Positions 25,373 to 53,038 of a DNA stretch of 64,000 nt are shown in pieces (the stretch's first letter is position 1; each line of letters begins with the position of its first letter). The notes under the pieces are model-generated. The model saw only the letters and a list, made by a program, of their open reading frames with translations. It was not told the DNA's origin and made no database searches. Made by a program: the position numbers and the translations under genes. Origin of the DNA: Escherichia coli (GTDB taxonomy: Bacteria > Pseudomonadota > Gammaproteobacteria > Enterobacterales > Enterobacteriaceae); NCBI RefSeq assembly GCF_003334785.1, contig NZ_QOWV01000015.1; one strand, given 5' to 3'.

Positions 25373-25494
25373 ATTACACTGACTGAAACGTTTTTGCCCT
25401 ATGAGCTCCGGTTACAGGCGTTTCACTCATAAATCCTCTGAATGAAACGCGTTGTGAATCATCCTGCTCTGACAACTCAATTTCAGGAGCCTTT

Positions 25495-29218: not shown

Positions 29219-29314
29219 AACGAATATCCCCTGATTAATTCCGCGCGCAGTATAAACGAAAACGTTTGCGCGTGTCTTTATTGCTGATGTTGATTTCTCA
29301 ACCGAAAAGAAATA

Positions 29315-49999: not shown

Positions 50000-50791
50000 A
50001 TGGCTAACGCAGATCTGGATAAACAGCCTGATTCTGTATCTTCCGTGCTAAAAGTTTTTGGCATTTTGCAGGCGCTGGGTGAAGAGCGCGAAATAGGGAT
50101 AACCGAGCTGTCGCAGCGCGTCATGATGTCAAAAAGCACCGTTTATCGCTTTTTACAGACCATGAAAACCTTAGGTTATGTGGCGCAGGAAGGGGAGTCG
50201 GAGAAATATTCCCTGACCCTGAAATTGTTTGAACTGGGCGCTCGCGCGTTACAAAACGTCGATTTAATTCGTAGCGCAGATATCCAGATGCGTGAGCTCT
50301 CCCGCCTGACCAAAGAAACTATCCACCTCGGCGCACTGGACGAAGACAGTATTGTTTACATTCACAAAATTGACTCTATGTACAATTTGCGCATGTATTC
50401 ACGGATTGGGCGTCGTAATCCGCTGTACAGCACCGCGATTGGTAAGGTACTGCTGGCATGGCGCGATCGCGATGAAGTGAAGCAAATTCTTGAGGGCGTG
50501 GAGTATAAACGCAGTACCGAGCGGACCATCACCAGTACAGAAGCGTTATTACCCGTTCTGGACCAGGTGCGCGAGCAGGGGTATGGCGAAGATAATGAAG
50601 AGCAGGAAGAAGGGCTGCGATGCATTGCGGTACCGGTATTTGATCGCTTTGGCGTGGTCATTGCCGGTTTGAGCATCTCCTTCCCGACGTTGCGTTTCTC
50701 TGAAGAGCGTTTACAGGAATATGTCGCAATGTTGCATACCGCAGCGCGCAAAATTTCTGCCCAAATGGGTTATCACGACTATCCGTTCTGA
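50000..50791 (+). CDS. kdgR: KdgR, IclR-family transcriptional repressor
   Basis: 263-aa ORF with IclR HTH ITELSQRVMMSKSTVYRFLQTM. Confidence 0.9.
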   Translation: MANADLDKQPDSVSSVLKVFGILQALGEEREIGITELSQRVMMSKSTVYRFLQTMKTLGYVAQEGESEKYSLTLKLFELGARALQNVDLIRSADIQMRELSRLTKETIHLGALDEDSIVYIHKIDSMYNLRMYSRIGRRNPLYSTAIGKVLLAWRDRDEVKQILEGVEYKRSTERTITSTEALLPVLDQVREQGYGEDNEEQEEGLRCIAVPVFDRFGVVIAGLSISFPTLRFSEERLQEYVAMLHTAARKISAQMGYHDYPF

Positions 50792-50800
50792 TGAGAGTAA

Positions 50801-50838
50801 GAACCTGTCGGAATATCAAACAGACAGGTTCTTTATTT
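50801..50838 (+). terminator. intrinsic terminator after kdgR
   Basis: gaacctgtcggaatatcaaacagacaggttc plus T-rich tail. Confidence 0.7.
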
Positions 50839-50934
50839 AGCATGAGAAAAATAAAGTTGAAGGTGGCGTTATATTAAACGCGCTTGCTATAAGAGTATTT
50901 TACTCAGGAGTGAGAATCTGGTTATTTATTGCCC

Positions 50935-51174
50935 TTAACCATTATCGACCACGATATTGCTTTTGCGTAACAGCGGGCAATCTGTTATCCCCAAAAAACC
51001 ACTTTTAGTGTGCAAGTATTGTACCGTGCTGGTGCCTCTGGCAGTCAGATAGGTACATTGCAAACCTAATCCTGCGGCATTCTCTTTGCTTCCAATCAAA
51101 ACGCCATATCCGCTGAGTAATAATCCTATCCAGACCAGTGCTATCAGCATAACTGTGCGAATGATGAATCGCAT
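50935..51174 (-). CDS. yobH: YobH, small secreted/membrane protein
   Basis: 79-aa ORF MRFIIRTVMLIALVWIGLLLSGYGV... with hydrophobic N-terminus. Confidence 0.7.
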   Translation of the reverse strand: MRFIIRTVMLIALVWIGLLLSGYGVLIGSKENAAGLGLQCTYLTARGTSTVQYLHTKSGFLGITDCPLLRKSNIVVDNG

Positions 51175-51276
51175 TACAACCTCTTCTCTTTTTATGTTCG
51201 CTTAATCGTAGCGGCAATATGCGCTGAAGCAAGCGACTCATTCCGAAAAAGCACGAATATCGACATAGTTAGGCGC

Positions 51277-51303
51277 TGTTTAACTAACGCATGCTAGTTT
51301 AAT
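51277..51303 (+). promoter_or_regulatory. putative PhoP box and -10 element of mgrB promoter
   Basis: TGTTTA-actaa-cgcatg (half-site 2 degenerate) then TTTAAT about 30 bp upstream of the mgrB start; recall-based. Confidence 0.35.
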
Positions 51304-51332
51304 GACATAAGGTAGGTGAAACGGAGATTGGA

Positions 51333-51476
51333 GTGAAAAAGTTTCGATGGGTCGTTCTGGTTGTCGTGGTGTTGGCTTGCTTGCTGCTTTGGGCGCAGGT
51401 ATTCAACATGATGTGCGATCAGGATGTACAATTTTTCAGCGGAATTTGTGCCATTAACCAGTTTATCCCGTGGTGA
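51333..51476 (+). CDS. mgrB: MgrB, 47-aa membrane peptide, negative feedback regulator of PhoQ
   Basis: GTG-start [50 protein letters not shown] read by eye; below the track's 60-aa cutoff (track shows only a spurious minus-strand ORF). Confidence 0.8.
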
Positions 51477-51550
51477 TATCATTTTTTCAGCACTAGATTT
51501 TCTTCCTCTCCAGCAGTGGTAGAATAGCGCCTCTACTCAGAGGTGGTGAA

Positions 51551-51838
51551 ATGAACGAAGTTGTAAATTCAGGCGTGATGAACATTGCGTCTTTGGTTGT
51601 ATCGGTGGTGGTTCTTCTTATCGGGCTCATCTTGTGGTTTTTTATCAATCGTGCCAGTTCACGGACTAACGAACAGATTGAACTGCTTGAGGCGTTGCTG
51701 GATCAGCAAAAACGTCAAAATGCACTGTTACGTCGTTTGTGCGAAGCAAACGAACCAGAGAAAGCAGATAAAAAGACCGTTGAGAGTCAAAAATCGGTTG
51801 AAGACGAAGATATTATTCGTCTGGTCGCCGAACGATAA
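51551..51838 (+). CDS. yebO: YebO, small membrane protein
   Basis: 95-aa ORF MNEVVNSGVMNIASLVVSVVVLLIGLILWFF... Confidence 0.7.
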   Translation: MNEVVNSGVMNIASLVVSVVVLLIGLILWFFINRASSRTNEQIELLEALLDQQKRQNALLRRLCEANEPEKADKKTVESQKSVEDEDIIRLVAER

Positions 51839-52507
51839 TCCTTCCTCAATCTTGAGTAACCCCGTCGTTGAAGGGTTACTCAATTCATCCTGATTATACG
51901 CACTGTCATGGTGCAACTGCTTCAAATTAAAACTCTGGTCTGACTTCAAATAATTATCATATTATTTATTTGCGTAACGGGATATCAGAAAAAGATATTT
52001 ACCCCATTAATTTATTAGGATGTTTACATCGGATTTGTGATTAAGCGTGGTATTATTTATTAGCGAAACGTTTCTCTCTTGATTTTTTTGCTCATTCATC
52101 AATTTTTCTTATTTTAAATTTACAATCCCTTTGGGGATTGACTTCTCTTTAGGGTAATTAATAGCCGTTAACTGACTGTTTTATGAGAAAAAGTGATATA
52201 ACTTTTTATTCATTGCATAGCAAAAAATGTGATATTGCACGCACTATGTAATAACTTCTCCCACTGGCCTGGAACAACTGAACTTATTGAACTATGTTAG
52301 AAAATACGCCAGTTTAAGTATCTGCCTGAACTGGCAAGGTTAAGCACAATGATATATCGGCGCGTATTCCGTTGCATAAGTGTGCAAAAAAAGTGGAAGA
52401 CGTATCGAGATTTGTGCGTCTGATCGAGACATGTTTAAAAATGGCTTGCCATAATTAACGTTGTATGTGATAACAGATTTCGGGTTAAACGAGGTACAGT
52501 TCTGTTT

Positions 52508-52651
52508 ATGTGTGGCATTTTCAGTAAAGAAGTCCTGAGTAAACACGTTGACGTTGAATACCGCTTCTCTGCCGAGCCTTATATTGGTGCCTCATGCAGT
52601 AATGTGTCAGTTTTATCTATGTTATGCCTGCGGGCGAAGAAAACAATCTAA
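52508..52651 (+). CDS. yobF: YobF, 47-aa small stress-induced protein
   Basis: [53 protein letters not shown] read by eye; 12 bp upstream of cspC; below track cutoff. Confidence 0.7.
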
Positions 52652-52663
52652 GGAATTTTTCAA

Positions 52664-52873
52664 ATGGCAAAGATTAAAGGTCAGGTTAAGTGGTTCAACG
52701 AGTCTAAAGGTTTTGGCTTCATTACTCCGGCTGATGGCAGCAAAGATGTGTTCGTACACTTCTCCGCTATCCAGGGTAATGGCTTCAAAACTCTGGCTGA
52801 AGGTCAGAACGTTGAGTTCGAAATTCAGGACGGCCAGAAAGGTCCGGCAGCTGTTAACGTAACAGCTATCTGA
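52664..52873 (+). CDS. cspC: cold-shock-domain protein CspC
   Basis: 69-aa [40 protein letters not shown]... with RNP1 motif. Confidence 0.95.
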
Positions 52874-52919
52874 TCGAATCCACTGATCTGAAGTGTGAAT
52901 ACGCTTCAATCTCGCTATA

Positions 52920-52947
52920 AAGCCTCGTCGAATGCGAGGCTTTTTAC
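52920..52947 (+). terminator. intrinsic terminator after cspC
   Basis: aagcctcgtcgaatgcgaggcttttt. Confidence 0.8.
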
Positions 52948-53038
52948 TATGCTTTATCTTCGCTCCTGGCGTTCGGATATTTGCCCGCCGCGTGATTCGC
53001 GTTACACTTGCGGCCTTTAGTATCCTGCCGGAGTTGTC

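Follow-up and report, generated by a model that had tools for sequence, protein, structure and literature searches.

The analyzed window, a contiguous stretch of 64,000 nt (64 kb) from Escherichia coli, contains a spacer of 669 bp at positions 51839–52507, which extends from the end of yebO (51838) to the start of yobF (52508). When read on the opposite strand, the whole window was found to be 100% identical to the genome of E. coli K-12 MG1655, and positions were converted by subtracting the window position from 1,960,099, which yields the position in NC_000913.3. The spacer on the K-12 chromosome is thus NC_000913.3 1907592–1908260, and the curated K-12 record contains no annotation within the 669 bp. 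The features described below are located on the plus strand of the window, apart from the unconserved spacer segment and the operator-like palindrome, for which no strand is given. An initial annotation, made from the sequence alone, had described an AT-rich non-coding stretch between yebO and yobF-cspC with many A/T runs, without a plausible open reading frame, and with a length among the greatest of the non-coding stretches in the window. This description was confirmed, and the coordinates are exact. The upstream gene and the spacer point in the same direction, and no other annotated intergenic gap of the 64 kb is as long; the next is the yobD-mntP gap with 428 bp. It is also the most AT-rich 669-bp stretch in the window, with a GC content of 35.1% versus 50.3% window-wide; just 0.17% of the windows of this size are equally AT-rich, and the GC content of the core (51900–52299) is as low as 31.5%. 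A/T runs of at least four nucleotides occur at a density of 17.9 per kb in the spacer versus 10.3 per kb, and tandem repeats were not found in the spacer. The longest open reading frames wholly inside the spacer have 20–31 codons, and one minus-strand frame of 68 codons enters from yobF. The possibility of an insertion element in the spacer was considered and rejected, as the IS1 copies of three genomes reside inside yobF, after position 52537, with target duplications of 9–10 bp.

The left end of the spacer contains the end of the preceding transcript. The segment 51839–51887 comprises the yebO 3′-UTR with a perfect 11-bp inverted repeat (arms at 51852–51862 and 51873–51883), and a published Term-seq data set contains a “primary” yebO 3′ end at NC_000913.3 1908212/3, which corresponds to window positions 51886/7. 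The 3′ end of the mgrB-yebO transcript is located a few bases past the hairpin at 51852–51883, which is not followed by a U-tract. Among the adjacent minus-strand Term-seq rows listed, the next 3′ end after yebO lies inside yobF. The segment is conserved only within Escherichia, with an identity of 70% there and of 15% elsewhere. It is followed by an unconserved AT-rich spacer (51888–52039), which showed 23% identity to non-Escherichia loci in a heavily gapped alignment; in about 30 species the equivalent place is occupied by a gene for an MBL-fold hydrolase.

At the right end, two mapped transcription starts face yobF. The main promoter, P1, together with a near-invariant upstream block, extends from 52409 to 52482. 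It consists of the −35 element TTGCCA (52446–52451), the TG-extended −10 element GATAAC (52469–52474), and the start at 52482. A published table of transcription start sites (TSS) contains this start at 1905641 (old coordinates) with 249 reads and a leader of 26 nt, and in an independent tagRNA-seq study the yobF start was mapped to 1907615–8, which is about 52482. The best promoter reported in an RpoD genomic SELEX study, TTGCCA-17-GATAAC (52446–52474), is correctly placed for this start, and an RpoN SELEX peak has been reported near P1. The identity of 52409–52482 was 87–93% across the family and 87% to non-Escherichia loci. The part upstream of the −35 element (52409–52445) was nearly invariant, and it includes an A-tract (52437–52441) that, judged from its position, could be a subsite of an UP element. 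The distal promoter, P2 (52270–52306), has the −35 element TGGAAC (52270–52275) and, after a gap of 17 bp, the −10 element TATGTT (52293–52298), with the start at 52306. The same TSS table gives this start at 1905817 (old coordinates) with 107 reads and a leader of 202 nt. The conservation of P2 is 65–80%, with 65% identity of the segment 52266–52306 to non-Escherichia loci, and its consensus is CTGGAC..N..GAGCTATGGTAAAAAAG. Both promoters have the properties of sigma-70 promoters, i.e., mapped starts facing yobF and properly spaced, conserved hexamers. The read counts show that most transcription in growing E. coli begins at P1.

The TSS table contains no further entry between the two yobF starts and the yebO start, and the supplements of the Cappable-seq and SMRT-Cappable-seq studies contain no entry for the spacer coordinates or genes. 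A paper from 2026 names three promoters: yobFp1, yobFp2, and cspCp8. For Salmonella 4/74, the annotated TSS of the operon is at 1893683; according to our own calculation from the distances at the Salmonella locus, this is the equivalent of P2, with a leader of about 204 nt. Two Salmonella Tn5 insertions assigned to the 5′-UTR have been reported to mimic the loss of cspC, and we calculated that they are located 23–32 nt upstream of the ATG. Among the CRP-like sites of the spacer, the best one, AAATGTGATATTGCACGCACTA (52225–52246), agrees with the consensus at 12 of the 16 specified positions and is centered at −70.5 from the P2 start. Escherichia, Salmonella, and Citrobacter share the left half of this site, and yobF is among the targets predicted in a CRP genomic SELEX study. 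A potential class-I CRP site at −61.5 of P1 (TGTGC-N6-TCGAG) was rejected because a hand count yielded 9/16 mismatches; it is not among the sites obtained in the CRP scan, which includes sites with up to six mismatches.

For the comparison with other species, YebO was used to scan species-representative genomes. This yielded 80 loci, 75 of which have yebO and a complete yobF start, and together with E. coli K-12 these made up the 76 Enterobacteriaceae loci that were compared. Two length classes were found. The short class comprises 45 loci and E. coli K-12 and has spacers of 441–745 bp. The spacers of the 30 loci of the long class have a length of 1455–1581 bp and contain a gene for an MBL-fold metal-dependent hydrolase (331–347 aa) after yebO, and 411–535 bp of non-coding DNA remain before yobF. 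As non-coding DNA has been kept in both classes, the long, AT-shifted upstream region of yobF is ancestral and does not depend on yebO, and the length class and the AT bias of the spacer are ancestral as well. Sequence constraint is confined to three islands, namely P1 together with the block that precedes it, P2, and a distal module (52040–52125); outside these islands and the P1 leader, the identities to non-Escherichia loci were 15–43%.

The distal module is located about 380–470 bp upstream of yobF, and its identity to non-Escherichia loci was 52%, compared with 23–33% in the flanks. The consensus reads TTTTATTTTTA[G/T]CGAAACGTTTTT[A/C]TTGCC..GA[T/G]GCA.GTCAT.AAA.TTTCATTATTTTGGTGCA. No E. 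coli start has been mapped in the module according to the TSS table, and a search for paralogous copies in E. coli genomes yielded no match, which is uninformative given the short query and the very large database. The core decamer CGAAACGTTT is present in 69 of the 76 loci, in 68 of them at a distance of −382 to −477 from the yobF ATG and in one at −584; it is missing from the Klebsiella/Raoultella-like loci and from Intestinirhabdus. The module includes a palindrome, AGCGAAACGTTTCTCT (52062–52077), which resembles operators of the LacI family. It is identical to the rbsD operator of RbsR, AGCGAAACGTTTCGCT, at 15 of 16 positions, including a central CG in E. coli; the operator sequence was taken from the upstream region of rbsD in MG1655. 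Escherichia and Salmonella share the palindrome with 100% identity, and the identity to non-Escherichia loci was 83%. The left half of the palindrome, CGAAAC, is invariant in 69 of the 76 loci, and its right half varies (GTTTCTCT, GTTTTGCT, GTTTTTAT), so conservation of both half-sites, as for an operator of the RbsR type, was not observed in the orthologous loci. The palindrome does not match the PurR or Cra consensus within three mismatches (at least four each); elsewhere in the window, the same patterns find the PurR box of purT and a Cra-like site upstream of edd. In the multi-genus consensus, the palindrome is followed by a promoter-like hexamer pair, TTGATG-17-CATTAT, according to our own reading. 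The pair could represent a third promoter; E. coli has a poor equivalent of it, at which no start has been mapped. Downstream of the palindrome, E. coli has a degenerate counterpart of a GTCAT-N6-TTCAT direct repeat plus TTATTTTGGTGCA (52093–52124). The repeat resembles a Pho box: the Pho-box consensus CTGTCATAWAWCTGTCAY, which was checked against the phoA box, was found within four mismatches in 49 of the 76 loci versus 4% of shuffles, and the degenerate E. coli repeat agrees with it at 12 of 18 positions (hand count).

The initial annotation had also suggested that the stretch might contain curved DNA or binding sites for nucleoid proteins. The second suggestion gained support. In the RpoD genomic SELEX paper, as far as its table entries go, several RpoD peaks are assigned to a “670 bp spacer” at this locus, and this spacer is marked as H-NS-binding. 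The mark stems from in-vitro genomic SELEX in one laboratory, and it was taken from the marks in the table. The base composition given above, within the lowest 0.17% of windows, is that expected for an H-NS-bound region. The first suggestion did not find such support: the autocorrelation of AA/TT amounted to 0.03 for lag 10 and 0.01 for lag 11, and thus a phasing of 10–11 bp, as in helically phased A-tracts, is absent from the spacer. An intrinsic curvature based on phasing is therefore not directly supported by the sequence.

Taken together, these results strongly favor the view that the stretch controls the transcription of yobF-cspC, is joined to the 3′ end of mgrB-yebO, and has no gene of its own. 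The initial annotation had instead proposed a long yobF-cspC leader with a stress-responsive structure. That the stretch is such a long, structured leader responding to stress or temperature seems improbable to us, and one part of the proposal was borne out. A long leader does exist: the P2 leader (52306–52507) encloses all of P1, and its start corresponds to the annotated Salmonella TSS. The long transcript is predicted to pair UUGUGC (about 52412–52417) with the region just 3′ of the Shine-Dalgarno (SD) motif, and the folds of 50 orthologous 5′ segments lean slightly to the stable side (mean z = −0.96, 13 of 50 below −2). However, this leader is the minor isoform, and it covers merely the last 30% of the stretch, i.e., at most 202 of 669 bp. 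Transcribed leader is confined to 52306–52507 for P2 or 52482–52507 for P1, and 70% of the stretch is upstream of both. The minimum free energy of the E. coli P2 leader did not indicate an unusual stability compared with shuffles (z = −1.08). Its 5′ half is variable in sequence (29% identity), and no fold was shared among the variable 5′ halves. In a covariation analysis of 50 non-redundant leaders, none of the 24 consensus pairs was compensatory, which is uninformative as such because the paired columns are invariant. A small conserved palindrome, GCATAAGTGTGCA (52374–52386), is conserved to 56–68%, recurs as GCATAAnTGTGCA in most genera, and forms a hairpin of 4–6 bp, without covariation, in most single-sequence folds; it is possibly a hairpin or a protein site. 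Furthermore, the major start is only 26 nt upstream of yobF. The initial annotation had named a yobF-cspC start at a distance of up to about 50 nt, combined with a lack of conserved structure further upstream, as evidence against its interpretation, and for the main promoter this is the observed situation. The P1 5′-UTR (52483–52507) with its SD motif GAGG (52491–52494) is a target zone of small RNAs and is 97–100% identical in all loci (97% to non-Escherichia); OxyS has been reported to pair close to the yobF SD motif, and CyaR targets yobF. A search of the region 50500–53500 against Rfam with a permissive threshold (E ≤ 1) yielded a single match, the cspA thermoregulator (RF01766), with 135.5 bits (threshold 78). 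The match extends from 52488 through yobF to the cspC terminator, downstream of the AT-rich stretch. As it begins 6 nt after the P1 start, the P1 transcript is homologous to cspA-type mRNAs. If there is a leader structure of the cspA kind, it is part of the P1 transcript and lies downstream of the AT-rich stretch. The further suggestion of the initial annotation, an unannotated small RNA, was not supported, and we regard a small RNA or small protein gene hidden in the stretch as very improbable. Promoter-like hexamers at 51927–51954 and the sole terminator-like hairpin (52123–52140) could in principle delimit a transcript of roughly 190 nt, and in an in-vitro run-off array transcription from the spacer probe set was observed, with a preference for sigma-70. 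Nevertheless, the T-tail of the hairpin is weak, the hairpin is already absent from the close relative E. albertii, and the hexamers are likewise unconserved within Escherichia. Within 51888–52305, there is neither a start site in the TSS table nor a 3′ end among the adjacent minus-strand Term-seq rows listed. The folding of 52040–52305 was also unremarkable (z = −1.07). The hallmarks of a trans-acting small RNA, i.e., an own start and terminator or a match to an RNA family, were thus not found. A simple promoter and terminator scan gave counts equal to the shuffle expectation and was convincing for no promoter in the distal 470 bp, though it also missed the verified P1 and P2 and is thus insensitive, and it was not used. 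A small protein gene is opposed by the shortness of the internal reading frames (up to 31 aa), none of which is kept as a reading frame across genera in tblastn searches, and by the empty K-12 record. Two wide tblastn matches are overlapping frames on the invariant P1 DNA and thus reflect conservation of DNA and not of protein.

Two other readings concern parts of the stretch and can be weighed alongside the control region. The left part of the spacer may be an evolutionary scar, i.e., AT-rich filler that was left after the loss of the MBL-fold gene, or a place where that gene was never inserted; we consider this a possible reading, albeit not the probable one. It is consistent with the 30 of 76 loci that carry the MBL-fold gene directly after yebO and with the lack of conservation of 51839–52039 outside Escherichia. 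In addition, short-class loci of the Enterobacter cloacae complex, which do not have the gene, keep a relic of 20–26 aa of the hydrolase C-terminus (E = 8e-4 to 5e-3). In contrast, no relic was found in E. coli, Salmonella, or Citrobacter, and tblastn likewise did not reveal a remnant in E. coli. A scar would account for no more than about 200 bp and does not conflict with the main explanation. The other reading assigns a regulator to the distal module: RbsR or a close relative from the LacI family would bind at 52062–52077 and modulate yobF-cspC, e.g., through a third promoter that is weak or silenced by H-NS, or by acting against H-NS, and would thereby transmit the ribose or nucleotide status to CspC. 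This is rather doubtful. It would agree with the close match to the rbsD operator and the worse fit of the PurR and Cra consensus sequences, with the fixed distance of the core to yobF in 69 of 76 loci, with the perfect identity in Escherichia and Salmonella amid flanks that are just 23–53% identical to Salmonella and other genera, and with the promoter-like pair that follows the palindrome in most genera. Moreover, a single succinate screen in Salmonella yielded mutants in rbsR, cspC, and the yobF leader with the same phenotype. However, the authors of that study did not link rbsR to cspC and explained the rbsR phenotype via RpoS and the rbsD mRNA, and overexpression of RpoS suppresses the phenotype. 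In a literature search, no paper linking RbsR with yobF was found except this paper and its preprint. Genomic SELEX with RbsR reportedly yielded just 5 sites and 3–4 targets. In addition, only the left half-site of the palindrome is invariant, and the varied right half would weaken the binding of a dimer, the nearest mapped start is 246 bp away, and the site is missing in Klebsiella and Raoultella. The RbsR targets identified by SELEX are reportedly rbs, purHD, add, and udk, and not yobF. That the palindrome and the adjacent repeat together form a distal operator for RbsR or a sister protein of the LacI family that tunes yobF-cspC directly is, in our view, unlikely; such an operator might possibly act on an H-NS-silenced third promoter. 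If it existed, the CspC/RpoS stress network would receive an additional input from sugars or nucleotides, and there would be a direct reason for the succinate growth phenotype shared by rbsR and cspC loss-of-function mutants in Salmonella.

In this view, the control region of yobF-cspC is organized as follows. According to the published 3′ end, the yebO mRNA ends just after the hairpin, at 51886/7, and the next about 150 bp are unconserved AT-rich DNA. Then the distal module follows, the conservation of which was observed, and which might be a site for a protein of the LacI family and possibly also for a response regulator. After further AT-rich spacer DNA, P2 produces the leader of 202 nt, and the strong, near-invariant P1 produces the leader of 26 nt, at whose ribosome-binding region OxyS and CyaR act according to the literature. 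H-NS, which binds the AT-rich body in vitro as far as the published table marks indicate, would use this body as a platform that most likely sets the contribution of the upstream promoter and of the distal module and that would limit the activity of the upstream promoter.

The stretch is thus real but ordinary and largely known, being a documented control region with several promoters and an H-NS mark. It needs no new gene or RNA, and the unexplained part could be narrowed to a module of about 85 bp with a candidate regulator. The distal operator-like module, for which no description was found in the literature searched, is the only new detail and is a modest, testable lead. The RNA chaperone CspC influences RpoS, virulence regulation, the use of succinate, and the long-term fitness of colonies, and adaptive mutations repeatedly hit yobF-cspC. 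Sorting the functional parts of the long upstream region of yobF aids the reading of such mutations.

The comparison with known systems revealed similarities and differences. The cspC gene is not cold-induced. In the cspA promoter/5′-UTR family (RF01766), the segment that corresponds to the leader is represented here by the yobF reading frame and thus lies outside the AT-rich stretch. The distal module shares with the Pho box, the binding site of PhoB, two 7-mers containing TCAT at a distance of 11 bp in most genera, but its second repeat is always TTTCAT and not TGTCA. Pho promoters have a −10 element about 10 bp downstream of the Pho box, whereas the distal module is not followed by such an element. 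The rbsD operator of RbsR, a member of the LacI/GalR family, is nearly the same (15/16) as the yobF palindrome, which has a length of 16 bp and CG in its center. However, the rbs operator precedes the start codon of rbsD by 15–30 bp, whereas the yobF palindrome is 444 bp away from yobF, and the latter has only one half-site that is invariant across genera. Counterparts of the whole region are the long type-B spacers of E. coli, e.g., mngB-cydA with 847 bp; the RpoD genomic SELEX paper names the yobF spacer alongside cydA as an example with several RpoD holoenzyme peaks. In contrast to spacers of the mngB-cydA type, the yobF spacer has only two mapped starts, both in the proximal 200 bp, and no promoter has been assigned to its distal 470 bp; nevertheless, like those H-NS-marked spacers with multiple promoters, it combines several RpoD peaks with an H-NS mark, AT richness, and a co-directional arrangement.

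The cspA thermoregulator model of Rfam matched the window from 52488 to 52948 with 135.5 bits (threshold 78). The match begins 6 nt past the start site of the main yobF promoter and reaches the cspC terminator, and therefore, the yobF ORF sits where the 5′-UTR of a cspA-type gene would be. Published mapping data place further transcript boundaries within this ORF, namely, a strong Term-seq 3′ end at window position 52620 (1907479 in NC_000913.3), 44 nt upstream of cspC, and three minor start sites listed for cspC, with leaders of 112, 119, and 129 nt. In three E. coli genomes, one of them a W3110 derivative, yobF was interrupted after codon 10, at 52528–52537 in the window, by IS1 (1139–1905 in locus L084), with a target duplication of 9–10 bp. 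This fits the published observation that yobF-cspC is a hotspot for IS insertion in ageing colonies.

On the other side of the spacer, yebO is not only co-transcribed with mgrB; a separate start site for this gene has been mapped at 51531, 19 nt before the ATG. Several Term-seq 3′ ends were reported within the gene (51622, 51731), and the authors of that study cloned the yebO 5′-UTR and ORF for testing. Directly 3′ of yebO, about 30 species of Enterobacteriaceae carry a gene for an MBL-fold metal-dependent hydrolase of 331–347 aa, which separates yebO from the region upstream of yobF (3308–4303 in locus L009, 3310–4317 in L029, and 28 other loci). The carriers are Lelliottia, Kosakonia, Leclercia, Buttiauxella, Cedecea, Phytobacter, and some Enterobacter. 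Loci of the E. cloacae complex have retained a C-terminal relic of 20–26 aa, and the gene was found in none of the compared loci of Escherichia, Salmonella, Citrobacter, and Klebsiella.

As controls, the window was scanned with the PurR consensus and a Cra pattern. The former recovered the expected box upstream of purT (29256–29271, one mismatch), and the latter yielded ACTGAAACGTTTTTGC in the edd-zwf spacer (25382–25397, three mismatches). In E. coli, the top match to the Pho-box pattern was the minus strand of GTTAACTGACTGTTTTATG (52172–52189), with four mismatches; this element is conserved in 4/4 sequences of the Escherichia lineage and not outside it. One half of the operator-like palindrome (52062–52077) is duplicated, together with the sequence flanking it on the left, in a 20-nt direct repeat. 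The copies of this repeat, TATTATTTATTTGCGTAACG (51960–51979) and TATTATTTATTAGCGAAACG (52051–52070), are identical at 18 of 20 positions and lie 91 bp apart. The upstream copy is weakly conserved in E. albertii. The 91-bp spacing is reminiscent of the auxiliary operators of LacI-type systems, but the repeat may be a coincidence of AT-rich DNA.
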